Shown here in pieces: positions 12,108 to 51,241 of a stretch of DNA of 64,000 nucleotides. The notes below the pieces were generated by a model that was not told the origin of the DNA, did not search any database, and was given only the letters and a program-made list of their open reading frames with translations. Within the stretch, counting starts at the first letter, position 1. Each line of letters opens with the position of its first letter. This stretch comes from Candidatus Nomurabacteria bacterium RIFCSPHIGHO2_12_FULL_42_19. GTDB lineage: Bacteria > Patescibacteriota > Minisyncoccia > Phycocordibacterales > UBA9973. The stretch lies in the NCBI GenBank assembly GCA_001786955.1, contig MFUM01000004.1:4457-68456 (forward strand), given 5' to 3'. The translations under genes and the position numbers were made by a program.

Positions 12108-12258
12108 ATATTTTTCTTAAATTAATCCCAACGCTCTCGGGTCGGGACTCCGACTTTACATCGGGGTTAATAAAAAAGACCTTTATGTTAATACAGTTAT
12201 TATATCATATTCTTAAAATATGCTACAATGGTATATTACAAGTTAAATAGCAGAAGAA

Positions 12259-12307
12259 GTCGCGCTTCAATGGACAATTGCGCGACACGATTCTGCAGAA
12301 TCGAAAT
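12259..12307 (+). promoter_or_regulatory. Conserved start-proximal element, instance 4 (before the dsbA-like gene): GTCGCGC-N14-GCGCGAC then the perfect palindrome GATTCTGCAGAATC, then GAAAT-ATG
   Basis: Same architecture as the instances at 429, 4336 and 63271. The palindrome carries compensatory T>C and A>G changes relative to GATTTTGCAAAATC. Confidence 0.6.
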
Positions 12308-12991
12308 ATGCAAAACAATGACCAAAAACCGATAGCCGGGGCAATCCTTATCGTAGGGGTTCTCATCGCCGGAGCAATTCTGTTAAAAGACAGCAAGGCG
12401 CCAATAGTAAATGCACCAGCTGCAAACAATGAAAAAAATCCGACAACCGGAAGACCGGTCTCATCGGCTGACCATATAATAGGAAGCCTGAATGCAAGAT
12501 TAGTTATAGTAGAATATTCGGATCTTGAATGTCCGTTTTGCAAAGTATTTCACGACACAATGCATAAAGTGGTAGATAACAGCAACGGCAAGGTTGCTTG
12601 GGTGTTTAGGCATTACCCGATTCCCCAACTTCATTCAAAAGCTTTTCGCGAAGCCGAGGCCACGGAATGCGCTTGGGAGCAGGGCGAAAATGACGCTTTT
12701 TGGAAATATACAGACAGGTTGTTTGAGATTACTCCATCCAATAACGGCCTGGATGCGGCTTTACTGCCTGAGATTGCCGAATATGCCGGATTGAATGTCG
12801 CGTCTTTTAATGATTGTCTGGTTAGCGGAAAATTCACAAATAAAGTTCAAGCTGATATTGATGATGGAATCAAGGCAGGCGTAAATGGAACCCCGTCTTC
12901 TTTCATCCTGCAAAAGGGTTCCCGCGTTGATACTATCCCGGGTGCCCAGCCGTATGAATCGGTGATGCAAAGATTAAGCGAGATAAAATAA
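12308..12991 (+). CDS. DsbA-family thiol:disulfide oxidoreductase (thioredoxin fold, CPFC active site) with a signal anchor
   Basis: VEYSDLECPFCKVFH. Start set at 12308 (MQNNDQKPIAGAILIVGVLIAG) because the conserved leader element lies upstream. The ORF track's 12278 ATG falls inside the leader hairpin. Confidence 0.8.
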   Translation: MQNNDQKPIAGAILIVGVLIAGAILLKDSKAPIVNAPAANNEKNPTTGRPVSSADHIIGSLNARLVIVEYSDLECPFCKVFHDTMHKVVDNSNGKVAWVFRHYPIPQLHSKAFREAEATECAWEQGENDAFWKYTDRLFEITPSNNGLDAALLPEIAEYAGLNVASFNDCLVSGKFTNKVQADIDDGIKAGVNGTPSSFILQKGSRVDTIPGAQPYESVMQRLSEIK

Positions 12992-12997
12992 ATAAAA

Positions 12998-14206
12998 CTA
13001 GTCAAAATAATTTTTCAGACGGGAAATTTTGTCGTGTTGGCGAAGTTTTTCGTGAACCTTGGCTTCAATTTGGCGAATACGCTCGCGGGTAACACCGAAT
13101 TCTTCCCCTACTCTTTCCAGCGTATGCTGAATGCCGTCAAGCAGGCCATAGCGCATTTCAAGAATTTTCCGCTCTTTCGGGTTAAGTTCATCCAAAACTT
13201 CGCGAATCTGGTCGGAGAGAATCCGGCGGGAAGATTCCTGGTCGGGACGCAAGATTTTATCGTCCGGAATAAAGTTTTCCAGGGTTGACTTGTCGTCATC
13301 GTCCCCCACCGGCTGTTCCAGGGATACAGTCTCCTGGCTGATATTTTCAATAACATGGATTTTTTCAACCGGGATGCCCATCTCGGTCGCAATTTCTTCG
13401 GCTAGCGGTTCCCGGCCTAAATCCTGGCTGAGCCTCCGGTGTGTCTGCTTATATTTGGAAATTGTTTCCACCATATGCACCGGTATGCGAATAGTTCTGC
13501 TCTGATCAGCCAAGGCACGGGTAATGGATTGGCGAATCCACCAAGTAGCGTAAGTAGAAAATTTATATCCTTTGGTCCAATCAAATTTTTCCACCGCCTT
13601 GAACAAGCCCAAATTCCCCTCCTGAATCAGGTCAAGCAGAGTTAAATTCGCGCTCCGGCCGACGTATTTTTTTGCGATTGAAACCACCAGACGCAAATTA
13701 GCGCGGGCCAATAAATTCTTTGCTTCCATATCCCCGCGCTCGATGCGCTTGGCAAGATCCTTCTCGTCACCCGCACGAATGAGAGGATATTGCCCTATTT
13801 CTTTCAGATACATTTGAATTGAATCATGCAAGCTTGATTTATTTAAATCTTTATCATTAAGGTCAAGGTCGAGATTAAGCAAATTTCCGCCTTCCAACAC
13901 ATCAATCGAGGCTGCAGAAAATTTCTCATAAAGCTCGTCTAAAAACAAAATATTGTTTTCGATGTCCGGAAAAGTTTTTAATATCTCGTCATAAGTGATA
14001 AACCCGCGCTTTCTTCCTTTTTCTATAAGAATATTTGCCAAATGAGCTAGGTTTTCGGCTTTCTTTTCAGCATAAGATAATTTTTTGGTTTTCGGGGCTT
14101 TTTTAACTATTTTACGGGGCTTTTTTTTGATTTTTTTTACCTTTTTGCTTTTTCTCTTTTTCGCAACTTTCGCTTTTTTATTTAATTTTCTGTTTTTCTT
14201 TTTCAT
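12998..14206 (-). CDS. rpoD: RNA polymerase sigma-70 factor RpoD with a poly-Lys N-terminus
   Basis: 402 aa. Region 2 reads [39 protein letters not shown]. Region 4 has an HTH. Confidence 0.95.
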
Positions 14207-14213
14207 TAATTTT

Positions 14214-15950
14214 TTATTTACGATTATTTTTAATATTCTCTTTTTTCTTATTCAATTCATTTATTTCCTTCAAAATCTTTTTACCTATTTCCTCATTAGA
14301 CGTTTGTCTTAATTCCAGCATTTTCTTGCTTAACTCTTCATTAATATTTTCTTCTTCAAGATTCAGAAACATCTCCGTTATGCTATTTTCTAATTTTTCG
14401 TTGTTCGTATAAAATACTTCTGCTTCGAATATAAGATCTTGTTTGACAACTTCATACTTTTTATAAACTTCTCCTAATTTTTCAAAAATTGCCTTAAAGT
14501 CTATAGCGGACGTTGGACGTCCGAGTTCCGGACGTCCAACGTCCGCTAAGCTTTGCTGCCAAAGAGCGATGCCCAAGAGTTTTCGCTCTATGTAATCTTT
14601 TCTGTACATCTTGGTTAAGCTCTCTCCCGCTTCCTTAATTTCTTCTTTTTCATATCTGAACTCTTGCTCAATTTTTTTTAAATCATCCTGTAATGCATTT
14701 TGAGATATGCCCGAAAGGTCGCTAATCTTTTTTATAAAATGCATTTTTTCTATCGAGCTTTCGAGCGCATTTACAAACGGTAATATTGTGCCTTTTATTT
14801 CCCTACCGGCCTTACGGGTGTCATTGCTATAATTTTTTAAAACTTTACTTAAAAGAAATTCTATAACGTGTTTAGAGTTTTTAATGGCTTCGCGCCAGGC
14901 ATCCGAACCCGTCTTCCCAATCAAATCCGCCGGATCGACACCATCAGGCATATCCACCACTTTTACATCCATCCCCAAAGAAAGAGCGATTTTGCCGGCA
15001 CGAATGGTCGCACTTGCCCCCGCCTTATCAGCATCAAAAGCAAGCACTAGATTCTCCGATAGGCGCCGCACCAGTCCTAAATTGCTTACAACATTTTCTT
15101 TTGAAACAGTAGAATCCGATAAAGCTGTGCCGGATGTCGCGATTGTGTTTTTATATCCCGCTTGATGCGATAATATCAAATCCATCTGACCTTCCACTAA
15201 AACAGAGAAGTTGTTCTTGCGGATGGAATCCTTAGCCTTATCAATTCCGTAAAGCACCGCATTTTTGCTGAAAATGGGCGTCTCGGGAGAGTTTAAATAT
15301 TTCGGTTCTCCTTCCCCTGTAATTCTTCCCGAAAACGCTATAACTCTTCCGCTTGAATCATTCATGGGAAACATAATTCTATTGCGAAAACGATCATAGT
15401 ATCCTTTCTCCGTTTTTTTAATTAGCCCGGCACGCTCTATTTCTAAATCACTAAAACCTGTCAACTTCAAGTGTTCATAAAGCGTCCGCCAGTCATCCTT
15501 CGCAAATCCAATACCAAAATCTTTGATTGTTTTTTCGCTCAGTCCTCGAGATTTTAAATATTCTATTTGTTTCGTTTCTAAGTTAGAAATAAAGAACTTC
15601 TCTGCTTTCTCCATCGCCCTGTATAATTTTTCTTTTTCGCTTTCCGCTTCTTTCATTTCTTTGCTGTAAGCCTTAAGAGGCACTCCGGCCCTATCTGCAA
15701 GAAGTTTTAATGCGCCTTTAAAATCAAGCCCTTCAAATTCCTCGACAAAGGTAAAAATATCACCCGACGCCCCGCAGCCAAAACAGTAATAAGTGCCGCG
15801 GTCGGGAGAAATGAAAAACGAAGGGGTTTTTTCATTGTGGAACGGGCATTTCGCCTTCAGGTTTACGCCTGTCTTCTCGAGCTTTATATAGGAAGAGACT
15901 ACTTCTTCAATCGATAGCCTCTCCTTAATTTTTTGTACGGGGGAATTCAT
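14214..15950 (-). CDS. dnaG: DNA primase
   Basis: 578 aa. CHC2 zinc finger [30 protein letters not shown], followed by a Toprim domain. It sits upstream of rpoD in the classic operon arrangement. Confidence 0.95.
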
Positions 15951-23501: not shown

Positions 23502-24236
23502 TTATCTATTTTTCTTCCATTCCTCTATTTTTTTGTGGTTTCCAGAGAGTAAAACTTTCGGAACTTTGTAATTTTTATTCTTATATTTTAAAACTTCCGG
23601 GCGGGTGTAAACTTCACTACTAGAGACTCGTTCTTCTTCTAGTGATTCATATTTACCCAAAACCCTGGGAATCTGGCGAGAAATTGAGTCTATTAAAACC
23701 ATCGCCGGTAATTCGCCTCCGGTTAAGACATAATCCCCTATTGAAATATCTTCTGCCTTAAATATCTTTTTGACCCGCATATCTATGCCTTCATAACGGC
23801 CGGAAATCAAAATAATATCGGTGTATTTTTTTACGGAATTTTTTGCATATGCCGTATTAAATTTTTTACCGGATGGAGAAAAATTTATTATTTTAATTCT
23901 AGAGCGTTTAGAAAGTGTTCTTGCGAATGGTTGACGTTGCGTAGTAGGAAATCCTGAGCGAGAACACTTTCTAAGAGCGTATTCAATAGCCTTTAGCATC
24001 GGCTCGGCTCTCATCACCATTCCCGGCCCTCCGCCGTAAGGCTTATCATCTACCGGGCGATACCCATTGTCTTTAACCCTCCTCCGCTTAAAAGCTTCGG
24101 ACGGGCGAGTAAAATCCCGCGGATTGTAAAATTTCACTTCTATCAGCTTGTTCTTCAGAGCCCGTCCGACAATAGACTCATTTAGGTATGAACTGAACAT
24201 TTCTGGGAATATGGTAATAATGTGAAATTTAATCAT
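23502..24236 (-). CDS. trmD: tRNA (guanine37-N1)-methyltransferase
   Basis: 244 aa. Starts MIKFHIITIFPEMF and contains YGGGPGMVM. Confidence 0.9.
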   Translation of the reverse strand: MIKFHIITIFPEMFSSYLNESIVGRALKNKLIEVKFYNPRDFTRPSEAFKRRRVKDNGYRPVDDKPYGGGPGMVMRAEPMLKAIEYALRKCSRSGFPTTQRQPFARTLSKRSRIKIINFSPSGKKFNTAYAKNSVKKYTDIILISGRYEGIDMRVKKIFKAEDISIGDYVLTGGELPAMVLIDSISRQIPRVLGKYESLEEERVSSSEVYTRPEVLKYKNKNYKVPKVLLSGNHKKIEEWKKNR

Positions 24237-25145: not shown

Positions 25146-27167
25146 ATGAAGGAATCTAAAAACAAATTGCAAGGTATTATTTCCATCTCTTCAAAAGGCA
25201 CAGGCTATGTGGCAACCGGAGAAGTGAAGAATAAGGGCCAGGACCCGGAAATTGATTTCCAGCATTTAAATACCGCCCTGCACGGAGATATGGTAGAGAT
25301 AATCTTGCACCCGAAAGGTAAAAATCGCCAAACTGCTGAAGTTTCAAAAATAATATCGCGCGCAAAAATGAATTTCGCGGGAGTTCTGGAAGAAGAAAAC
25401 AAAATGTTCTTCCTGAAACCGGACGATACAAAAATGTATACAGATATTCTAATCCCAACCAAGTTTTTAAATAATGCGAAAGTTGGACAAAAGGTTTTTG
25501 TGGAAATAATTTCATGGAAAGATCCCCACAAGGCTCCGGAAGGAAAAGTAATAAAAGTTTTAGGCCGTCCGGGAGACAATGATACTGAAATGGAAAGTAT
25601 TGCGATAGAAAAAGGCTTTGATGCGAAACTTCCGCATAAAGTGGAAGAAGAAGCAAGGAAAATAAAGCAAAACGGCATTAAAGAAACCGACTATGCCGGA
25701 CGCAGAGATTTTCGCAAAACCCTGACCTTCACTATTGACCCCTCGGATGCGAAAGATTTTGATGATGCGATATCTTTCAGATTCCTCCCCTCCTTAAATA
25801 AGGAGGGGGCAGGGGGTGGTAATTCAAAAGACCACCCCGCCTCCGGCACCCCTCCTAAAAAAGGAGGGGAAGAGCAATATGAAGTCGGCATACACATCGC
25901 CGATGTCTCGCATTATGTAAAAATCGGCAGTGCTTTAGATGAAGAAGCGCGAGAAAGAGGAACTTCGGTATATTTGGTAGATAGGACGATACCAATGCTG
26001 CCGGAAACGCTTTCTAATGATTTGTGCTCTCTGGTGCCAAATAAAGACCGGCTTACTATGAGCGCAGTATTTATCATAGATAAAAATGCTCATGTAAAAA
26101 GCAAATGGTTCGGGCGCACGGTTATACATTCAAAAAAAAGATTTACTTACGAAGAAGCCGAGGAGTTAATAAAAAAATCCGCTGCGCCGTTCCATAAAGA
26201 ACTTTTTATCTTGAACAGCTTGGCAAAAAAATTAACCGGGGAAAGATTTGCGCAGGGCGCAATATCGCTTGACCAGGAAGAAGTAAAATTTGTTTTGGAT
26301 AAAAATGGAGTGCCGTTGAAAGTAATAAAAAAAGAGCGCGGCGATTCAAACAGGCTGATTGAGGAATTTATGCTCCTGGCAAATAAAAAAGTGGCGGAGG
26401 TCTTGTCTCCAAAAAATATAAAGGGTGTGAAAGATGAAGGCGTATCCATATACCGAGTGCACGATCTGCCGAGTAAGGAAAAAATGGCCGATCTGGCGTT
26501 TTTTTTGCGAAGTTTGGGACATAGAGTCTCCTTGCAGAACGGCCTTATCCCGACATATGAAATAAATAAGCTTCTAGAGAGTTTGGCCGGCAAAAATGAA
26601 GAAGATACGGTGCATCGCGCAGTTATCCGTTCTATGGCTAAAGCGCTTTATTCCACCAAAAATATCGGGCATTACGGTCTGGCTTTTCAATATTATACTC
26701 ACTTCACTTCCCCGATTAGGCGCTATCCGGACATCATGGTGCACAGACTTCTGGAAAAATTCCTCTCTGGCAAAAAAATAAAAAAGGAGGATTTAAAAGA
26801 GAAATTAATCGAATATGAAAAAATCGCCCTAAATGCATCCGAACAGGAAAAACGCGCCGCAGATGCCGAACGAGCTTCCATAAAATATAAACAAGTGGAA
26901 TATATGTCCAGATATCTGGGAAAAAGCTTCGACGGGGTAATCAGCGGGATAACCGAGTGGGGCATGTATGTGGAAGAACTAGAGACAAAATGCGAAGGTT
27001 TGGTGCGGGTACGTGATATGAATGACGATTTTTATATTTTCAATGAAAAAAAATTGGAATTAACCGGACAAAAAAAGAAAAAAAAGTACAGGCTCGGCGG
27101 CCGTGTCAAAATAAAAGTAAAATCGGTTGATTTGGAGAGAAAAACGATAGATTATATATTGACATGA
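25146..27167 (+). CDS. rnr: Ribonuclease R (RNB family 3'-5' exoribonuclease with a C-terminal S1 domain)
   Basis: RNB motifs DPSDAKDFDDAISF and HIADVSHYV, plus HYGLAFQYYTHFTSPIRRYPD. Start taken at 25146 (MKESKN...) because the ORF track's 24954 overlaps rpsP. It carries an 88-nt GC-rich in-frame element. Confidence 0.9.
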   Translation: MKESKNKLQGIISISSKGTGYVATGEVKNKGQDPEIDFQHLNTALHGDMVEIILHPKGKNRQTAEVSKIISRAKMNFAGVLEEENKMFFLKPDDTKMYTDILIPTKFLNNAKVGQKVFVEIISWKDPHKAPEGKVIKVLGRPGDNDTEMESIAIEKGFDAKLPHKVEEEARKIKQNGIKETDYAGRRDFRKTLTFTIDPSDAKDFDDAISFRFLPSLNKEGAGGGNSKDHPASGTPPKKGGEEQYEVGIHIADVSHYVKIGSALDEEARERGTSVYLVDRTIPMLPETLSNDLCSLVPNKDRLTMSAVFIIDKNAHVKSKWFGRTVIHSKKRFTYEEAEELIKKSAAPFHKELFILNSLAKKLTGERFAQGAISLDQEEVKFVLDKNGVPLKVIKKERGDSNRLIEEFMLLANKKVAEVLSPKNIKGVKDEGVSIYRVHDLPSKEKMADLAFFLRSLGHRVSLQNGLIPTYEINKLLESLAGKNEEDTVHRAVIRSMAKALYSTKNIGHYGLAFQYYTHFTSPIRRYPDIMVHRLLEKFLSGKKIKKEDLKEKLIEYEKIALNASEQEKRAADAERASIKYKQVEYMSRYLGKSFDGVISGITEWGMYVEELETKCEGLVRVRDMNDDFYIFNEKKLELTGQKKKKKYRLGGRVKIKVKSVDLERKTIDYILT

Positions 27168-33041: not shown

Positions 33042-33074
33042 AAAATAATGAACGGGGTGAACAATTTGTCAATT

Positions 33075-33133
33075 CACCTCACCCCCGACCCCTCTCCTTA
33101 TCAAGGAGAGGGGTGCCAAAGGCGGGGTGAGGT
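33075..33133. repeat. Intergenic copy of the GC-rich hairpin element family (CCTCTCC-TTATCAA-GGAGAGG core with an outer inverted repeat CACCTCACCCC / GGGGTGAGGT)
   Basis: Same core as the in-frame copies in pheS, rnr and smc. It also sits in terminator position after rpmF. Confidence 0.6.
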
Positions 33134-33357
33134 TATTTCTCCGCTTTTTTTGCTTTTGCTTTCTTTTGTCTCTTTTCCGTCTTTTTGACTAAATCCAAAA
33201 TCTTTTTCCCGCGGTAAAAACCGCAAGATGAGCACACTGTATGGCGTCTTTTTAGGGCTTTACAATTTTCACACTTGGAAAAACTCGTAGTTTCCAAGGC
33301 GTGGTGCGAGCGACGGTTTTTTGTATGCGATTTTGTATGCCTCATTCGTACTACCAT
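33133..33357 (-). CDS. rpmF: 50S ribosomal protein L32
   Basis: 74 aa. Contains HHALETTSFSKCENCKALKRRHTVCSSCGFY, a C4 zinc ribbon typical of L32. Confidence 0.85.
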   Translation of the reverse strand: MVVRMRHTKSHTKNRRSHHALETTSFSKCENCKALKRRHTVCSSCGFYRGKKILDLVKKTEKRQKKAKAKKAEK

Positions 33358-40280: not shown

Positions 40281-41072
40281 TTAAAACTGATTGAGGCGTA
40301 AATCTCCCTGATAAAAAAGTCTAACATCCGGAATACCCCATTTAATCATAGCAATACGGTCCAATCCTCCGCCGAAAGCAAAACCTTGGTATTTTTTAGG
40401 GTCCAAGCCGCAATTTTTGAGTACATTTGGGTGTAAAACACCTGAACCCATCATCTCAAGCCACTTCCCTTTGAACTTGGCGAAAACTTCCAGAGATGGT
40501 TCGGTAAAAGGGAAAAAACTGGGGCGAAATTCTACCTCCACATCATCACTCAACATTTTTTTGTAAAAATGGGTTAATACGCCCTTCAAATCAGCAAGGG
40601 AAACATTTTCTCCCACCATTGCTCCGTCTATCTGATAAAATTGCATTTCGTGCGTTGCATCCGTAGCTTCGTTGCGGAAAACTTTTCCGATGGAAATAAA
40701 AGCGGCTGGCAATCTGCCGTCTTTGCCCGCTTGCTCAATCGCGCGGGCGGTTACGGTCGTCGTATGTGTTCGCAACACAGATTTTGAATTACCACCCCCT
40801 GCCCCCTCCTTATCAAGGCGGGGAGGATTCTTTTCTCCTCCTGCCTGAGGAGGAGTGCCCGAAGGACGAGGTGGTTCTTTTATCCAAAATGTATCCTGCA
40901 TATCCAGCGCCGGATGGTCTTTCGAAAAATTCAAGGCGTAAAAGTTATACCAGTCGCTCTCCAGCTCCGGCCCGGTCGCGATTTCAAAACCAAGCTCCGA
41001 AAAAGCCCGATAAGCCTCCTCGGCTAACAGAGAAAGCGGATGTATTGTGCCCTTTTTTATGTCTTCGTTCAT
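40281..41072 (-). CDS. pheS: Phenylalanyl-tRNA synthetase alpha subunit (lacks the N-terminal coiled-coil)
   Basis: 263 aa. Class II core FRPSFFPFTEPS and GFAFGGGLDRIAMIKWGIPDVRLF. Carries an 87-nt GC-rich in-frame element. Confidence 0.9.
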   Translation of the reverse strand: MNEDIKKGTIHPLSLLAEEAYRAFSELGFEIATGPELESDWYNFYALNFSKDHPALDMQDTFWIKEPPRPSGTPPQAGGEKNPPRLDKEGAGGGNSKSVLRTHTTTVTARAIEQAGKDGRLPAAFISIGKVFRNEATDATHEMQFYQIDGAMVGENVSLADLKGVLTHFYKKMLSDDVEVEFRPSFFPFTEPSLEVFAKFKGKWLEMMGSGVLHPNVLKNCGLDPKKYQGFAFGGGLDRIAMIKWGIPDVRLFYQGDLRLNQF

Positions 41073-44256: not shown

Positions 44257-44366
44257 ATTTTAACACCTTAAGAGACTTTCTCCATCTGCATTATATAACC
44301 AAATTATGTGTCAAATAAACGGTAAAATGCTTTCTTTTTATTGGAAATAATGTAAATTAGAGACAA

Positions 44367-44425
44367 GGAGGATTCGCATAGCGGTCTAGTGCCGAAGGAA
44401 ATATAGACTTGGAAAGCGCTTTTTT
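44367..44425 (+). pseudogene. Degenerate copy of the 5' half of tRNA-Ser(GGA), a tRNA fragment
   Basis: GGAGGATTCGCATAGCGGTCTAGTGCC...CTTGGAAAGCGC aligns with tRNA positions 1 to about 45 of the gene at 44452. It has a 13-nt insertion and no 3' half. Confidence 0.55.
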
Positions 44426-44451
44426 GTTTGTTAGTATTTGAATTGAAAAAT

Positions 44452-44536
44452 GGAGGGTTCGCATAGCGGTCTAGTGCGCACGCTTGGAAAGCGTGTGTGG
44501 AGCAATCCACCAGGAGTTCGAATCTCCTACCCTCCG
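44452..44536 (+). tRNA. tRNA-Ser (anticodon GGA), type II with a long variable arm
   Basis: Acceptor GGAGGGT/ACCCTCC. Anticodon stem CACGC/GCGTG with loop TTGGAAA. Variable stem GTGGA/TCCAC. T-arm AGGAG-TTCGAAT-CTCCT. G73. Confidence 0.85.
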
Positions 44537-44561
44537 CCTTCGATTGCCGAAAATAATTTAT

Positions 44562-44818: not shown

Positions 44819-47014
44819 TTATAACATACTTAAAAATTCTTTCTCGCTTAATATTTTTACACCCAGCTTTTCGGCAACTTTAAGCTTGGAGCCCGGGTCC
44901 GCTCCGGCTACGATATAGGAAGTATTTTTTGAGACGGAACCCGCGACTTTCCCTCCGAGAGCCAGGATTCTTTCTTTAGCAATTTCTCGGGACATTTGGG
45001 AAAGCGTCCCGGTCAAAACGAAATGTAATTCGGTAAATTTGTCGGCTTTCTTTTTTTCCGCTCTTTCCACGATTACGCCATTTCTTTGCAATTTTTTTAT
45101 GAAATTCAAATTATTTTTATTATTAAAAAAATCATAAACGCTTTTTGATACAGCCGGGCCGATGTTTTCTATACTATCTATCTCAGCAAGGACTCCCCTT
45201 GCTGAAGTTATTAATTTTTCCAGAGTGCCAAAGTGTAGCGCTAAATCTCTTGCTGTTTCCTCCCCCACATGCAGGATTCCGAGCGCCCACAGAAAGCGTG
45301 AAAAAGGGATTTTCTTTTTATTTTTTATTTCATTGATTATGTTTTCCGCCGATTTTTCCCCAAAGCGTTCCAGGAGCGCTATATCTTCTTTTTTAAGGGT
45401 GAAAATGTCGGCTGCGTCGGTAATGAGCCCTTCGTCCTTGAATCTTCTCAGTATTTTCGGGCCTAATTCATAAATTTCAAAGACAGAAACAAAATGCTCT
45501 AAATACCTTTCGTTTTTTGCCGGGCATTTAGGATTGCTGCAATAATGAGCGACAGAGATATTCTCCAGCTCGCAAGATTTCTGAGTCGCGTAAGTCCCAC
45601 CCGGTACCCCGGGAAGGGTCAAGCGCGAAGAAATCTCGTGAGCCGAAGAATCCCCCATCTTTTTCTTCCTAACTTTTCCTCCGCAGGCCGGGCATTTGTC
45701 CGGCATTTTGAATTTTTTTTCTTTGCCTGTCCGCATCCGAATCAGCACCTCCACTACTTTCGGTATCACATCGCCGGCTTTTTCTATCACGACCGTATCC
45801 CCGATACGCAAATCAAGGCGCTCTATCTGGTCCATATTATGGAGAGTAGCCTTGGACACCCGGGAACCCGCCACCAGCGTCGGCTCAAAAAGAGCGAGCG
45901 GTGTCAATACACCGGTACGCCCGACATTTACCTTTATATCCTTTACTATTGTTGTCGCTCTTTCCGCCGGATATTTGAATGCCACCATAAAGCGCGGCGC
46001 CTTGCCGACCACCCCTAGTGTCTCCTGTAATTTCAAATCGTCCACCGAGACAACGACGCCGTCCGTGCCGTAGAGAAAATCGGGCCTGATTTTTTCAAAT
46101 TTCTTTATGAAAGTAAACACTTCATTCATATTAGCGCACAGAGCCTCCAATTTCTCAACTTTAAATCCAATCCTGCGGAGCATTTGATGTTTTTCGGAGT
46201 GGGTTTGCATAGCCGAATCATGAATTTTCTGAGTCGCGTAAGTCCCACCCCGTACTCGGGGAAGGGTCAAGCGCGAAGAAAATTCATGATTCGGCGTAGC
46301 CTCGGCTATATCGTAAGCAAAAAAATCCAATTCCCTTTTGGCGGCTAATTTTGGATCCAGCTGCCGCAAACTTCCTGCCGCGGCATTTCGGGTATTGGCA
46401 AAAAGGGGTTTTCCTTTTTTCTCATTTTCTTTATTCAATTTAACGAGCATTTCTTTGCTCAAAAGCGCTTCTCCGCGGATTTCCAGGTGCGGAAGGTATG
46501 GTTTTTGGAGAAGAAGTGGAATTGAATGTATGGTTTTGAGATTTTGGGTTATGTCTTCCCCAATTAATCCGTCTCCTCTCGTTGCGCCGCGCATAAACTT
46601 GCCATTTTCATAAACAAGCGAAACTGCCAACCCGTCAAACTTGACTTCGCAAAAATAATTAAATTTCGCGCGCGCAGGTAAAAGCTTTTTGATTCTTGTT
46701 TCCCACTCATATAATTCTGTCTCACTAAAAGCATCATTAAGAGAAAGCATGCGGGTTTTGTGCTGAACTTTTACAAATTTATTAAGCGGTTTGCCGGCTA
46801 CTCTGTTTTCCGGAGCATTTAAATCGTTAAATTCGGGGTATTTTTTCAAAAGCTCTTTAAGCTCGTGAGTGAGAGAATCGTAAACATCGTCGGTTACACC
46901 GGGGGCGTTTTGGGTATGATATAAATCACGCAAACGCGCGATTTCTTTTCGTAATTTTTTTACCCGCTTGGATTCGGCGAGGCTGGTTCTTTTTTTATCT
47001 TCCACCTCTTTCAT
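44819..47014 (-). CDS. ligA: NAD-dependent DNA ligase
   Basis: 731 aa. Adenylation domain (KFDGLAVSL), OB fold, Zn finger, HhH and BRCT. It contains two in-frame copies of a TIR-flanked repeat element. Confidence 0.92.
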   Translation of the reverse strand: MKEVEDKKRTSLAESKRVKKLRKEIARLRDLYHTQNAPGVTDDVYDSLTHELKELLKKYPEFNDLNAPENRVAGKPLNKFVKVQHKTRMLSLNDAFSETELYEWETRIKKLLPARAKFNYFCEVKFDGLAVSLVYENGKFMRGATRGDGLIGEDITQNLKTIHSIPLLLQKPYLPHLEIRGEALLSKEMLVKLNKENEKKGKPLFANTRNAAAGSLRQLDPKLAAKRELDFFAYDIAEATPNHEFSSRLTLPRVRGGTYATQKIHDSAMQTHSEKHQMLRRIGFKVEKLEALCANMNEVFTFIKKFEKIRPDFLYGTDGVVVSVDDLKLQETLGVVGKAPRFMVAFKYPAERATTIVKDIKVNVGRTGVLTPLALFEPTLVAGSRVSKATLHNMDQIERLDLRIGDTVVIEKAGDVIPKVVEVLIRMRTGKEKKFKMPDKCPACGGKVRKKKMGDSSAHEISSRLTLPGVPGGTYATQKSCELENISVAHYCSNPKCPAKNERYLEHFVSVFEIYELGPKILRRFKDEGLITDAADIFTLKKEDIALLERFGEKSAENIINEIKNKKKIPFSRFLWALGILHVGEETARDLALHFGTLEKLITSARGVLAEIDSIENIGPAVSKSVYDFFNNKNNLNFIKKLQRNGVIVERAEKKKADKFTELHFVLTGTLSQMSREIAKERILALGGKVAGSVSKNTSYIVAGADPGSKLKVAEKLGVKILSEKEFLSML
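45568..45643. repeat. ligA in-frame repeat element, copy 2 (imperfect TIR GCTCGCAAGATTTC / GAAATCTCGTGAGC plus a conserved structured core)
   Basis: Core TGAGTCGCGTAAGTCCCACCCGGTACCCCGGGAAGGGTCAAGCGCGAAG. It encodes SSRLTLPGVPGGTYATQK inside the ligase Zn finger, between the two Cys pairs. Confidence 0.7.
46212..46295. repeat. ligA in-frame repeat element, copy 1 (17-nt perfect TIR GCCGAATCATGAATTTT / AAAATTCATGATTCGGC plus the same core)
   Basis: The core differs from copy 2 at three positions. Two of them are compensatory within the stem CCCCG-TACT-CGGGG versus CCCGG-TACC-CCGGG. It encodes SSRLTLPRVRGGTYATQK in the adenylation-domain region. Confidence 0.7.
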
Positions 47015-47017
47015 ATA

Positions 47018-47509
47018 TTAATAAGATACTCTGATTTCACGTTCAATGCGATTCGGATTAGAGGGTAAACATCCGGAATCGCCAATATTATATCCCTTTG
47101 AGGTAACTGTCGTGATTATTGACGGTGCTTTAGTGATATTATCTTTAAAAACAGTCACATTGGCACAACCAAGCTCGCTATTACCCAGTCTGGAAACGAC
47201 AAAATTCCAGGATGGGAAAATGCCATTCAGGGTAATATTGCCACCGAGACACTGCACTGTGCCTGATCCTCCGCTCTGCACGAAAGAATTACTGGAAGGT
47301 TTGTCATTGTTGAGTGCGCATTCGGCGCCGGTATCAGCGGCAAAAAAAGCTTCATTGGTGTCTTTGGCGGAAGTGCCAAATCTGATTTCTTTCAAAGCAA
47401 TATTAGCAACACCCAGAGCGATGGCTAAAAGAATACTTGAAAGAGTAACTGCAAAAAGTATTACAAATCCCCTATTTTTTTTTATTTTTTTTATAATCAT
47501 TGCGTCCAA
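47018..47509 (-). CDS. Type IV pilus minor pilin / pseudopilin (PilX-like)
   Basis: 163 aa. Hydrophobic prepilin-like N-terminus GFVILFAVTLSSILLAIALG, beta-rich C-terminus with Cys. Confidence 0.6.
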   Translation of the reverse strand: MDAMIIKKIKKNRGFVILFAVTLSSILLAIALGVANIALKEIRFGTSAKDTNEAFFAADTGAECALNNDKPSSNSFVQSGGSGTVQCLGGNITLNGIFPSWNFVVSRLGNSELGCANVTVFKDNITKAPSIITTVTSKGYNIGDSGCLPSNPNRIEREIRVSY

Positions 47510-47955
47510 TTAAATAAATTTTCTGAAAAAGTTATGCTGTAATTCCCTGAACCTTGAGTCCAGGAAACGGTTGAGAAAATTTTAACTTCCTCCGAATTTA
47601 CTATAGTTTTTTGAATTGTGCGGCTAAAACTAGAATCGGCAGGAGAGGAAGGAGTTATGTCGGCTATGTTGGCATCTCTGAAATTACTCCAATTTTTTCC
47701 TGTCGTTTCGGTATATAAAACATAAGTGTCACGCACATTCCTGGCATACTCGATGCCTTCTTGGGTCAAATAGGCGGCAATTATTTTCTTTTTGGCATAA
47801 TTGGTATCGGCAATTCCCTGAGACAAAATTATCAGCAGGCCTAAAATTGACACGGAGAAAATGGAAACAGCAACAAGCGTCTCTATTAAAGTGAATCCCC
47901 TCGGCAAGTTTGGAACTTTTTGATTTTTATTTTTTTGTTTAAAAAAATTTCTCAT
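47497..47955 (-). CDS. Type IV pilus minor pilin (class III signal RGFTLIETLVAV)
   Basis: 152 aa with the canonical G/FTLIE prepilin cleavage and methylation motif. Confidence 0.8.
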   Translation of the reverse strand: MRNFFKQKNKNQKVPNLPRGFTLIETLVAVSIFSVSILGLLIILSQGIADTNYAKKKIIAAYLTQEGIEYARNVRDTYVLYTETTGKNWSNFRDANIADITPSSPADSSFSRTIQKTIVNSEEVKIFSTVSWTQGSGNYSITFSENLFNWTQ

Positions 47956-47959
47956 AATT

Positions 47960-48607
47960 TTAAATATCTATCAGTCTTTGGGACACTGAAGTCTGCAGAG
48001 AAAAGGGCGTGGCAACATTTTTAAAAGTTATCGTTCCAGTCAGTTTGATAGTAATAAAAGGTTGCTGCTGGTCGCCGGGAGGAGAAGTATAATTAGGGGG
48101 TTCGGCGCCCAATACTGAAAATCCGGAAACCGCCGAATCAATTACAACTTCGTCGGGAGTCAGTTGGATAAAATTAGATGCGCTATAAGGACCCGCCGTT
48201 GATTTGAAAATCTTGCCGCTGTCCAGATAGTAAATCCATTGATCGTCGTGATTAATCGGATCGCCGTCTGCAGCAGTAGAATCGCCATCGGCAGATTCAA
48301 AGGCTATGGCCCAGCCATTTATGCAACTCTTTGGAACGCTCACAATCGGAGAAGTAGTAGAAGGAATCGTGTCTCCGGCTGTAAAACAGTGATAATTATA
48401 TCCTGTTCTTAAATTTCTGGACATATCTTCCAGAATAAAACTTAAATTGTCTATTATTGAGCGCATGCTTTGCGATTTTTGGTGAAGCAGGTTGGCATTC
48501 AGGAGAGCGCCCATGCCGGCCATAATAATAATTATAAAAATAGACACGGCAATCATTGTTTCAATTATCGTATAACCGCCTTTAATTTTAAAATCTTTTT
48601 TAAGCAT
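47960..48607 (-). CDS. Type IV pilus minor pilin / pseudopilin (PilW/GspJ-like)
   Basis: 215 aa. GGYTIIETMIAVSIF prepilin motif. Confidence 0.75.
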   Translation of the reverse strand: MLKKDFKIKGGYTIIETMIAVSIFIIIIMAGMGALLNANLLHQKSQSMRSIIDNLSFILEDMSRNLRTGYNYHCFTAGDTIPSTTSPIVSVPKSCINGWAIAFESADGDSTAADGDPINHDDQWIYYLDSGKIFKSTAGPYSASNFIQLTPDEVVIDSAVSGFSVLGAEPPNYTSPPGDQQQPFITIKLTGTITFKNVATPFSLQTSVSQRLIDI

Positions 48608-50084: not shown

Positions 50085-50543
50085 TTAATCACAAATCGGG
50101 CCGGAAATATTACCTATTTCCCCTTTGGCGTTGCCTTGAGAATCAATACACCAATAATTGAAATTTCCTTCTTTGCTTTTTAGTAAAGCCGAAACCACAT
50201 AGGCTGAGGGATTAGCAGCACAGGTTGGCATTGTCCCGCCACTTTGTTTTTGCGCTTCCAGTATCGCTGCCCAAATTACAGTATTGCTAAATGGCGTACC
50301 GGCAGTCTGAGCGCAAGGTCCGATACTATGAGAATCAGTCCCATAAGCATTCGGAATATTATTCAAATACAACAACTCCGTTTGCTGCATTACGGTCCTA
50401 AGATTTGTTTTAACTCCGGCATTTGCCCCTTTGGCTCTTGAAGCGGAAGTGGAAGTTAGTATTACTCCGGTCAAAATAGCAATAATCGCGACAACGACCA
50501 ATAATTCAATTAACGTGAAACCTCGTTTAAAATTAGTTTTCAT
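50085..50543 (-). CDS. pilA: Type IV pilin (major pilin paralog 2)
   Basis: Starts [29 protein letters not shown]. Start set at 50543; the ORF track's 50606 lies upstream of the promoter-like TATAAT and of pilA1's terminator. Confidence 0.85.
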   Translation of the reverse strand: MKTNFKRGFTLIELLVVVAIIAILTGVILTSTSASRAKGANAGVKTNLRTVMQQTELLYLNNIPNAYGTDSHSIGPCAQTAGTPFSNTVIWAAILEAQKQSGGTMPTCAANPSAYVVSALLKSKEGNFNYWCIDSQGNAKGEIGNISGPICD

Positions 50544-50605
50544 AAATTTATCTTTCCTATTAAAAGGACTTTCTAATCCATTTATTATACCAAACCAAAC
50601 AAGCA

Positions 50606-50645
50606 AAAACCACCCTGAGTTTTCTTGGAGGGTGGTTTTTGTTTG
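50606..50645 (-). terminator. Intrinsic terminator after pilA1 (ACCACCCT-loop-AGGGTGGT plus a T-run)
   Basis: Hairpin at 50606..50640. In the minus sense it is followed by TTTTGCTTGTTTGG. A TATAAT box for the second pilin lies downstream. Confidence 0.6.
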
Positions 50646-50665
50646 TTGTAATCTTTAAACAGATG

Positions 50666-51112
50666 TTATGAACATACGCCAACTGTTGGTACGGTGTTAT
50701 AGGCCTTTACCCATCCAGAGTTATCTACGCACCATGTTCCAGTGCCTTTTAACGCAGGAACACTCATAGACCACTTTTGTCCACTTGAACCAACAGAACA
50801 AGATGCGGTGCTGCCAGATTGAGTATTAACTTGAACAATTGCTGCTGCAATAACAGGATCAGCAAACATACCAGTAGCTGTGGTACATGCGGTAGCGCCA
50901 AAATCAGAAGCAGCATATTTATTACCACCAGTGACACTATCATAATAAAGTTCTGCTTGTGCACGAACATTTGCCATATTCGCTTTTACCGCCGCATCCG
51001 CGCCCTTGGAACGCGCCGAGTTCAATGATGCAAGCACGACTGATGCCAATATGCCGATAATCGCCACGACCACCAAAAGTTCAATTAACGTGAAACCTTT
51101 ATTCATTTTCAT
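50666..51112 (-). CDS. pilA: Type IV pilin (major pilin PilA)
   Basis: 148 aa. Starts [28 protein letters not shown]-terminal Cys pair. Confidence 0.9.
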
Positions 51113-51241
51113 AATCTTAATTTCTAAACTAAATTAATAATAATTAATAATGCAATTTCGACTCCCGCCTGCTCCCATAGGGCGGGCAGGTATTTTTAAT
51201 ACGTTCATTATAACATATATGCAAAAAAGTTATCCACACCC

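Follow-up and report, generated by a model that had tools for sequence, protein, structure and literature searches.

Two hairpin insertions within ligA

The window analysed here (the whole 64-kb stretch of contig MFUM01000004.1 from Candidatus Nomurabacteria bacterium RIFCSPHIGHO2_12_FULL_42_19) harbors on its minus strand the gene for an NAD-dependent DNA ligase (ligA, 44819..47014, 731 aa; identified from its open reading frame (ORF) and translation), which contains two GC-rich hairpin insertions and stays open across both of them, with no stop and no frameshift. Its product shows the LigA Pfam domain set PF01653/PF03120/PF12826/PF00533 and is a 100% match to the LigA cluster of Ca. Nomurabacteria GW2011_GWA2_41_25-like genomes (the nearest database relatives are annotated as LigA of Candidatus Nomurabacteria/Paceibacteria); the 90%-cluster member from Ca. 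Nomurabacteria GW2011_GWA2_41_25 and GWC2_41_8 differs from it by a single residue. That the two insertions are translated, in-frame palindromes belonging to a repeated family is well supported, and their best reading is that of protein-coding palindromes of the Rickettsia palindromic element (RPE) kind in a new lineage and with a distinct architecture; no earlier description of the family was found.

The first copy (site 1) is a complete hairpin of 84 nt (46212..46295, minus strand), which adds 28 codons to a loop of the nucleotidyltransferase domain, after FFAYDIAEA, and encodes the peptide (T)PNHEFSSRLTLPRVRGGTYATQKIHDSA. Its low-coordinate arm (GCCGAATCATGAATTTTCT, 46212..46230) pairs with the high-coordinate one (AGAAAATTCATGATTCGGC, 46277..46295) in a perfect match of 19 nt each, and the conserved core (46230..46278, minus strand) is made up of a lower CCC/GGG helix, a CGCG/CGCG helix and an apical stem-loop at 46248-46261 (plus strand CCCCG TACT CGGGG); the fold energy amounts to -53.6 kcal/mol for the mRNA strand and -55.5 kcal/mol for the other strand. 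The second copy (site 2), a hairpin of ~92 nt (45560..45651, minus strand), lies in the zinc finger of LigA, separating its two Cys pairs, where the preliminary description of this DNA had placed it, and its peptide (...SSAHEISSRLTLPGVPGGTYATQKSCELEN...) is flanked in the protein by CPACG and YCSNPKCP. Here the arms comprise 14 nt with 2 mismatches and can be lengthened to 22 bp if 4 mismatches are allowed (45560-45581 / 45630-45651), and the core spans 45582..45630 (minus strand), with its apical stem-loop at 45600-45613 (plus strand CCCGG TACC CCGGG).

The earlier claim that both copies share a core was borne out: a degenerate pattern of the 49-nt core finds exactly two matches in the window (45582-45630 and 46230-46278), each with zero mismatch and for a chance expectation of 0, and the similarity of the two copies spans 64 nt at 91% identity. 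The translation of the ORF likewise agrees with the proposal that both are in frame and encode SSRLTLP(R/G)V(R/P)GGTYATQK (the insert peptide includes the stretch ...LTLPGVPGGTHTVQNSS...). Folding, which the preliminary description had put forward as a check, gave one long hairpin for each copy (-46 to -56 kcal/mol, z = -7 to -11 in comparison to shuffles), and the covariance model scored copy 1 at 89 bits and copy 2 at 87 bits (45562-45649), its only matches in the window. No Rfam family overlaps either core on either strand (gathering threshold and E<=10): only three tRNAs reach the gathering score in the window, and the sole nearby match (bxd_5, 46180-46235, at the edge of copy 1; E=7, 11.3 bits) is at chance level.

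The AlphaFold model of LigA (71 orthologs) is confident across the ligase domains and shows long coils of pLDDT (predicted local distance difference test) <50 only at residues 242-267 and 453-488, that is, at the two inserts, both of which are flanked by confident secondary structure; residues 71-78 form the sole other low-confidence coil. In this model both inserts are predicted to be disordered loops.

Distribution of the family across genomes and host genes

The occurrence of just two copies in the window, both in ligA, would fit a private tandem or intragenic duplication of this gene, or an ordinary lineage-specific loop with chance complementarity. This explanation is refuted by 87 distinct hairpin copies (GTDB loci, metagenomes and the window taken together; shuffled controls give none), which are distributed over more than 10 unrelated genes and dozens of genomes, nearly all of them Nomurabacteria/Paceibacteria, and by massive covariation. 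The copies were recovered by scanning one genome per GTDB species with the apical 24-mer (46 loci, 44 of them in Nomurabacteria, Paceibacteria or Minisyncoccia metagenome-assembled genomes) and by applying a relaxed pattern to metagenomes (91 stretches); L numbers denote the loci from these genome and metagenome scans, and P0001-P0120 the LigA orthologs. Copies were ascertained by the exact apical motif within short loci (2-16 kb), and exact-core copies number 1-2 per GTDB representative genome; outside the window more diverged relatives, some of them intergenic, were detected by the covariance model. Viral contigs yielded 0 matches, and a doubled-motif peptide-profile search for host genes in a set of 5.8 billion proteins returned 665 candidates, none with a usable E-value, the motif being too short for a database of that size.

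On the basis of peptide context and Pfam domains, the host proteins are LigA (2 sites), UvrA, UvrB, UvrC (2 sites), UvrD/PcrA, the delta' subunit of DNA polymerase III, LeuRS, an RluA-type pseudouridine synthase, Tgt, an S-adenosylmethionine-dependent methyltransferase and a FAD-linked oxidase (2 sites). They thereby cover every component of nucleotide excision repair (UvrA, UvrB, UvrC, UvrD/PcrA, LigA) together with the clamp-loader delta' (L009, L010, L029, L033, L040, L091, L104, L113 and others), and a rough binomial estimate for 5 of 12 host genes is ~1e-6, without control for expression or insertion tolerance.

The empty sites for which the preliminary description had suggested looking were found both among LigA orthologs (see below) and, at the DNA level, in the FAD oxidase (empty in L024, L038 and L045; filled in L025, L007 and others). 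Where copies are present, they are retained at orthologous sites across a host divergence of ~70% amino-acid identity. Within genomes, the core identity of copies at different sites (0.86) equals that of orthologous copies (0.86; background 0.82), and in some same-genome pairs the likeness extends into the arms (arm identity 0.71 for L005/L025 and 0.54 for L016/L035). Because same-genome copies at different sites are as alike as orthologs, sometimes in their arms too, these comparisons suggest that whole hairpins are now and then copied inside the same genome. At the second FAD-oxidase site (site b), L026 and L132 have a partial second copy of the left arm and the start of the core just downstream (…SYFTDKNFPGFNFFDLNK), which suggests a tandem or aborted copying event.

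In four cases (L006 and L102 at the HolB site; P0062 and P0108 at the zinc-finger site of LigA) the core is inverted between otherwise homologous arms, and the peptide reads KNSE(W/R)(C/R)(G/K)SHPVLREG.... Such flips are the expected outcome of recombination between the arms, and their rarity suggests that the usual orientation is favoured.

Reading frame and translation

Within long ORFs, 81 of the 87 copies share the same orientation and the same frame, in which the family peptide is (K)NSSGLTLPGVPGGTHTVQNS / ISSRFTLPGVPGGTYATQKS; the remaining six are either in another sense frame (3), flipped (2) or situated at a locus edge with a shortened ORF (1). Altogether, 86/87 copies are found inside ORFs of at least 100 aa, representing more than 10 different genes, and exact-motif copies in intergenic regions number 0/87. 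Stops are absent from the used frame (0/87), as opposed to 64/87 and 30/87 copies in the other two sense frames and to 34-95% of copies in each of the other five frames; for the arms alone, the figures are 0% in the used frame and 17-20% in the others. The length of the hairpin modulo 3 is no guide to frame, since stems extend by chance. Judged by the integrity of the ORFs, the elements are probably translated as part of the host protein.

A different view would be that the elements are removed before or during translation (as a mini-intron, through RNA excision and ligation, or by a bypass like that of the Magnusiomyces 'byp' elements or T4 gene 60) and that the LigA protein is made without them. 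Skipping of copy 2 would give back an intact zinc finger, and GC-rich hairpins in AT-rich coding sequence do resemble byps (PMC6649704); removed elements, however, need no open frame, whereas the used frame is free of stops even in the fast-evolving arms, the site-1 insert comprises exactly 28 codons, and no ribozyme or intron model matches. We regard removal as highly improbable, and an intron or bypass is rejected pending proteomics. An intein is excluded by size, ~28 aa being far too short.

Conserved core, covarying arms

The elements (78-110 nt) consist of a conserved, GC-rich, imperfect hairpin core of ~50-60 nt (consensus on the mRNA strand AAAAATTCTTCCGGCTTNACCCTTCCCGGAGTACCGGGYGGGACCCACACCGTTCAGAATTCTT) and of copy-specific arms of 12-25 bp; a conserved short AT-rich sub-terminal stem (AAAATTCTTC / GAAGAATTTT-like) flanks the core. 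The centre is thus conserved and the arm sequence private to each copy, a layout that bears on the terminal inverted repeats (TIRs) of 14 to 17 nt by which each copy had been described as bracketed: the arms exist (19 nt and perfect in copy 1, 14 nt with 2 mismatches in copy 2), but they are not transposon termini common to the copies.

In a gapless alignment of 47 sequences with 20 arm pairs, 90.5% of the pairs are Watson-Crick or wobble paired, 18/20 vary on both sides, and all four Watson-Crick types occur at most positions; the covariation score of 0.585 compares with 0.143 in shuffles (0/500 reach the observed value) and with at most 0.158 when partners are slid. The apical stem is found in five Watson-Crick versions (CCCGG/CCGGG in 66 copies, CCCCG/CGGGG in 10, and CCGCG/CGCGG, CCTGG/CCAGG and CCTCG/CGAGG in 3 each), with single-mismatch intermediates in just 2 copies. 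The reading of two of the three core differences within ligA as compensatory (CCCCG/CGGGG to CCCGG/CCGGG) is strengthened by the finding that the same switch recurs independently many times elsewhere. While some switches are synonymous third-position pairs, others change PGVPGG to PRVRGG, and we conclude from the five stem versions and the accompanying peptide flips that it is the pairing, not the peptide, which is conserved. Selection on nucleic-acid structure rather than on the peptide, as originally argued, consequently holds as far as pairing is concerned; the peptide frame is nonetheless not irrelevant, given that 81/87 copies keep one frame and none contains a stop in it.

At third positions, the synonymous identity between orthologous copies at the same host site is 0.69-0.87 in core columns not forced by the search pattern, as compared to 0.51-0.62 in flanking conserved host codons; the identity of the arms is 0.39-0.72. 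The core therefore evolves slower than neutral sites of the same lineages, which indicates either selection or a renewal more recent than the species split. A slow core, together with core helices that covary, points to purifying selection on structure.

Strand asymmetry

The pairing is not equivalent on the two strands. G.U pairs make up ~1% of arm cells, and the arm mismatches on the mRNA strand (one conserved column excluded) are biased, with 64 A.C versus 21 G.U and 68 pyrimidine-pyrimidine versus 13 purine-purine; the bias persists after clustering (p = 8e-5 and 1e-9 at 90% identity, 3e-3 and 3e-7 at 80%). On the antisense strand the same mismatches become the mild G.T and purine-purine ones. 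Accordingly folded, the antisense strand is better by 7.7 kcal/mol on average and better in 81/87 copies (in 85/87 for the core alone), and the consensus energy of the alignment is -53.3 kcal/mol antisense versus -40.8 kcal/mol on the mRNA strand. In two pairs of the core, the antisense strand shows U.G/C-G and G.U/A-U alternation (pairable in 70/71 and 71/71), while on the mRNA strand these pairs are an A.C mismatch in most copies. The same strand tendency was observed in several other hairpin families, though not in all.

These results modify the earlier emphasis on secondary structure, which covariation upholds, in that a structured mRNA is not the obvious reading of elements that fold better on the antisense strand. 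A cis-regulatory structure in the ligA mRNA (causing ribosome pausing at domain borders, or serving as RNase III site or stability element) would find support in the very stable hairpin formed there (mean -42.6 kcal/mol per 100 nt), in the position of the inserts between folded units of the AlphaFold LigA model and in their fixed orientation and frame. We nevertheless deem it quite improbable, as the mRNA strand consistently folds less well than the complementary one, G.U is rarer on it than A.C, and the sites are dispensable across orthologs.

With respect to replication, 38 of the 47 genes in the window are encoded on the minus strand, which is the G-rich strand; ligA accordingly points the same way as presumed replication, with the better hairpin on the lagging-strand sequence. 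As 81/83 host genes in the loci are co-oriented with their neighbours, the effects of transcription and replication orientation are not separable, and in the single informative case (L103) the orientation follows the gene. A scan for promoters and terminators around the elements stayed at chance level and gave no antisense-RNA signal.

Insertion history in LigA

The alignment of 120 LigA orthologs (70-82% identity) settled, in the affirmative, whether both segments are lineage-specific insertions rather than conserved LigA sequence. Many orthologs (e.g. P0011, P0027 and P0030) lack an insert at either site, and the closest ones (P0002, P0004) lack that of site 1. Excision of the exact 84-nt palindrome of copy 1 leaves YDIAEATMQTHSEKH, which has the length of uninserted orthologs, and therefore the inserted unit is the whole hairpin with its own arms.

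Inserts of at least 12 aa are present at site 1 in 42/120 orthologs and in the zinc-finger loop in 73/120, and LigA has ~5 insertion hot spots. The inserts belong to many peptide families (KNSSALLHPAGGTFRQKNFS, ESSSSKGPRFSGAPNPGQTISHRTL, PRIFDPRGS..., TTPSPLLNKEGR...SPPFEGGVP and others), all of which read like translated palindromes. The additional three hot spots, at residues ~114-117, 170-176 and 708, hold Gly/Pro/Arg-rich peptides in 9, 32 and 3 of the 120 orthologs, respectively; the window gene is empty there. In some LigA lineages the core has decayed or has been partly deleted (e.g. RFTLKGSDTTQKF, TLPLRGGT).

The two copies of the window differ in age. The zinc-finger copy (copy 2) is of old date and has been passed down vertically: in P0002, P0003, P0004, P0008, P0019, P0020, P0046 and others this site is taken by the same family, and the arms of copy 2 are homologous to those of L003 (P0004), with differences that are compensatory. 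Copy 1 is a recent, lineage-specific gain, with a core nearly identical to that of the resident copy of the same genome; it is the younger one because it is missing in the nearest relatives, has perfect arms, has the rare core variants CTTGACCC and GGGACTTACGCGACTCAG in common with the resident copy at site 2 and has arms that partly resemble those of site 2. A donor carrying the arms of copy 1 was found neither in the window nor among 141 loci (the arm at 46212-46230 recurs only as its reverse complement, at 46278-46295), and no within-species insertion or excision polymorphism was seen, as the full-length members of the 90% LigA cluster all keep both inserts unchanged.

One consequence concerns annotation: among P0001-P0120, the LigA zinc finger (PF03119) is reported almost solely for orthologs with an uninterrupted Cys-Cys loop, so that the insertions hide this domain from routine Pfam annotation.

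Origin and maintenance of the elements

Taken together, the observations lead us to favour, as probable though by no means certain, the explanation that the elements are translated, largely selfish or neutral coding palindromes of the RPE kind, whose arms are kept complementary by a process acting on DNA, and that they are not a device specific to LigA. Whole hairpins have been inserted in frame into permissive surface loops of housekeeping proteins and stay in the ORF. New copies would arise rarely, by the copying of a resident hairpin of the same genome, possibly through a single-strand or template-switch type of event that needs neither transposon-like ends nor target duplications. What keeps the arms complementary may be quasi-palindrome template switching, or conversion, acting on whichever strand forms the better hairpin; in co-oriented genes this would be the lagging-strand sequence (antisense to the mRNA). 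Copies that break the frame, add stops, encode harmful peptides or put the stronger hairpin in the mRNA would be purged by purifying selection on the host, and such a purge would leave one orientation and one frame.

Several observations weigh against this explanation. Neither a transposase partner, nor a donor copy, nor within-species polymorphism was seen; for a selfish element that is active, 1-2 copies per genome are few; the location of exact-motif copies is exclusively genic; the hosts are enriched in nucleotide-excision-repair and replication genes; a slow core with covarying helices is not predicted for a purely neutral passenger; template switching alone gives no obvious asymmetry of mismatch types; and translation is deduced from the integrity of the ORFs.

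Because of the slow covarying core, the low copy number, the restriction to genes and the preference for UvrABCD, LigA and replication genes, we keep a functional, strand-specific element as a serious rival, albeit an unlikely one. Under this alternative, purifying selection would maintain a signal beneficial to the host, acting as single-stranded DNA or antisense transcript in replication or repair, or in the co-regulation of genome-maintenance genes, with the peptide as a tolerated cost. It would account for a core that is slower than synonymous host sites, for core helices in which some pairs form only on the antisense strand, for the greater antisense stability and a mismatch asymmetry robust to clustering, for persistence at orthologous sites over the wide host divergence given above, for an orientation that is nearly invariant although flips happen, and for hosts that include UvrA, UvrB, UvrC, UvrD, LigA and the clamp-loader delta'. 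It is opposed by the fact that every site lacks an insert in some related genomes and is taken up by unrelated core families in others, by the decay or partial deletion of cores in some lineages, by the small number of copies per genome, and by the lack of an above-chance antisense promoter or terminator signal around the elements and of an Rfam match. Furthermore, the enrichment in repair genes could reflect long, weakly expressed, insertion-tolerant genes, and RNase R, PheS, DnaG and TrmD are the hosts of other families in the window. We are somewhat more doubtful about the broader proposition that the hairpins are a selected strand-specific signal (single-stranded DNA or antisense RNA) in genome-maintenance genes (UvrA/B/C/D, LigA, clamp loader, primase), coupling these to replication or repair status, or else that a transposase-independent copying of hairpins is itself selected; were it true, this would be a cis-element or mobile DNA of a kind without described counterpart.

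Strand-specific hairpins with wobble pairs and bulges are typical for the substrates of HUH single-strand transposases (IS608/REP biology), and by analogy the strand-specific quality of the present hairpins may hint at a classical non-autonomous transposon, whether a miniature inverted-repeat transposable element (MITE) or a single-strand hairpin like those of IS200/IS605 or REP/RAYT, which a transposase gene at another place in the genome would mobilise in trans. A repeated hairpin that is present or absent at different sites and genes, with same-genome copies alike even in the arms of some pairs (L005/L025, L016/L035), would also agree with such a transposon. We consider it improbable, because the termini are not conserved and flanking direct repeats remain at control level, the conserved part is central (the reverse of the TIR/REPIN layout), and the copies are few per genome and intragenic rather than extragenic. 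Moreover, no transposase was seen next to any copy within the 2-16-kb loci, the only recombinase gene being the serine recombinase by ligA in L004, and viral matches are nil.

In L004 this large serine recombinase gene (12113-13726), which has Resolvase/Recombinase domains, is the immediate downstream neighbour of ligA.

Relation to known palindromic elements

The elements share with MITEs and repetitive extragenic palindromic (REP) sequences the character of small hairpin-forming repeats, and the substrates of REP- and IS200/IS605-type systems are strand-specific imperfect hairpins. MITEs, though, have family-wide TIRs and target-site duplications, neither of which is present here: unrelated copies have 31% identity over the outer 12+12 nt, with all four pair types at most arm columns, so shared TIRs were not found, and the lengths of flanking direct repeats equal those of the shuffled-partner control, so no target-site duplication was found. 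Of the two resemblances initially proposed, that to MITEs hence falls short of the defining features, and that to RPEs has been retained. REP/REPINs lie outside genes and combine conserved arms with a centre that varies; the intragenic location and the opposite layout of the elements speak against them, no search for a RAYT gene having been made. A DNA-uptake signal (1-2 copies per genome are far too few) and a terminator (no T run, and the element is intragenic) were also rejected.

Integron attC sites conserve structure over sequence and function when one particular strand is folded in single-stranded form, a fold that has characteristic imperfections. As a possible mode of working they invite comparison; attC sites, however, flank gene cassettes handled by an integrase, and neither integrase, cassette context nor R/L boxes occur here. 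Mobile GC-rich hairpins are also known from organelles (yeast mitochondrial GC clusters, Magnusiomyces 'byp' elements and double-hairpin elements). Like these, the present elements are small GC-rich palindromes which spread through AT-rich genomes and may lie within coding sequence; unlike byps, which are skipped by the ribosome and need not be open, they reside in a bacterial chromosome, have an open frame in all copies and possess long private arms.

The closest known analogue are the RPEs (RPE-1 to RPE-10; Ogata et al. 2000, 2002, as summarised in PMC10969869), with which the elements are the same in kind; membership in an RPE family is not claimed and no sequence relation is known. In so far as the summary in PMC10969869 describes them, RPEs are likewise short palindromic repeats that a bacterium with a small genome carries in frame in unrelated housekeeping ORFs; they use one frame to encode a conserved peptide, occupy fold-compatible positions (here according to the AlphaFold prediction), form several families per genome, and have neither a known transposase nor a clear transposition mechanism. 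The differences are that the host here belongs to Patescibacteria and that the elements measure 78-110 nt, as against ~100-150 nt for RPEs in the same summary. RPE arms, in addition, lose repeat identity with time (PMC6649704), whereas the arms here are ~90% complementary despite a complete turnover of sequence; and the present elements have a GC-rich conserved central core, 1-2 copies per family and exact-motif copies that are all intragenic. Coding palindromes in the mitochondria of Nematomorpha, for which repeat conversion or template switching has been proposed (PMC6649704), are similar in that near-perfect inverted repeats lie in translated genes, with arms that are apparently homogenised and with dynamic gain and loss between species (PMC6649704). 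There, however, both arms encode the conserved native protein and no core or family is shared (PMC6649704), while here insertions with a family core are missing from many orthologs; a palindrome of the Nematomorpha type is ruled out, since the whole hairpin is missing from uninserted orthologs.

A 2024 review of prokaryotic MITEs treats RPEs as the outstanding case and similar elements elsewhere as only speculated (PMC10969869), and a full-text literature search found no published description of in-frame palindromic insertions in Patescibacteria (candidate phyla radiation, CPR), in keeping with the initial impression that nothing like them had been described for this kind of genome. The present lineage would thus be the second in Bacteria, after Rickettsia, with pervasive protein-coding palindromes, distinct from the RPE architecture by the conserved core, the co-evolving private arms and the strand-specific fold. 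Genomes of Patescibacteria/CPR are among the smallest and most streamlined, and yet 73/120 LigA orthologs and many housekeeping genes carry translated GC-rich hairpin inserts. The elements supply ready-made disordered loops for protein evolution, and the data bear on the survival of long perfect palindromes in essential genes, as treated in models of genome stability; the conserved core, the strand asymmetry and the repair-gene bias offer a way to test selfish against co-opted elements.

Other hairpins and gene neighbourhood in the window

The in-frame hairpin phenomenon is genome-wide: apart from the two copies in ligA, hairpins that are in frame but belong to other families occur at least 4 times in the window (in RNase R, PheS, DnaG and TrmD), and there are intergenic ones as well. 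The RNase R-like gene (RNB, CSD2 and S1 domains; 771-aa ORF) holds a GC-rich hairpin of a different family (25783-25873, plus strand, -55 to -59 kcal/mol) with the peptide SFRFLPSLNKEGAGGGNSKDHPASGTPPKKGGEEQY. In pheS (264-aa ORF) an in-frame hairpin at ~40780-40840 (minus strand) encodes PQAGGEKNPPRLDKEGAGGGNSKSVLR, and the same site in L003 (13734-13809) holds the different family QNFAALPASGLRHGQNF; with two families at one site, PheS therefore also has a hot spot. The DnaG primase gene (580-aa ORF) contains a perfect palindrome of 20 bp with a 5-nt loop (14504-14548, minus strand), which is in frame (peptide of 20 aa). The hairpin in trmD (23908-23974, minus strand; 253-aa ORF), in frame and with arms of 17 bp, reads in another frame as LLESVLAQDFLLRNVNHSQEHF, the peptide family found at LigA site 1 of P0039, P0045 and P0117; this match across frames indicates that one DNA family is used in different frames by different hosts.

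Intergenic hairpins are located at 33071-33138 and 759-860. One of the two contains the CCCCTCTCCTTATCAAGGAGAGGGG motif, which is also found within the RNase R and PheS inserts; the other has 102 nt with arms of 24 nt, no ORF and a fold of -46 kcal/mol on the plus strand versus -30 kcal/mol on the opposite one.

In the neighbourhood of ligA, a 33-nt copy of the 5' part of tRNA-Ser (44360-44392 versus 44445-44477, 88% identical) is situated 85 nt upstream of tRNA-Ser(GGA) (44452-44538), for which ARAGORN reports only one tRNA; this partial copy may be a tRNA remnant or an attachment-site-like duplication. Before ligA lies a run of type IV pilin-like genes (47018-48607 and 50472-51123) with N-methyl-type N-termini and repeated 5' ends of 77 nt, and the synteny between the pilus operon and ligA is kept in L001, L003 and L004.

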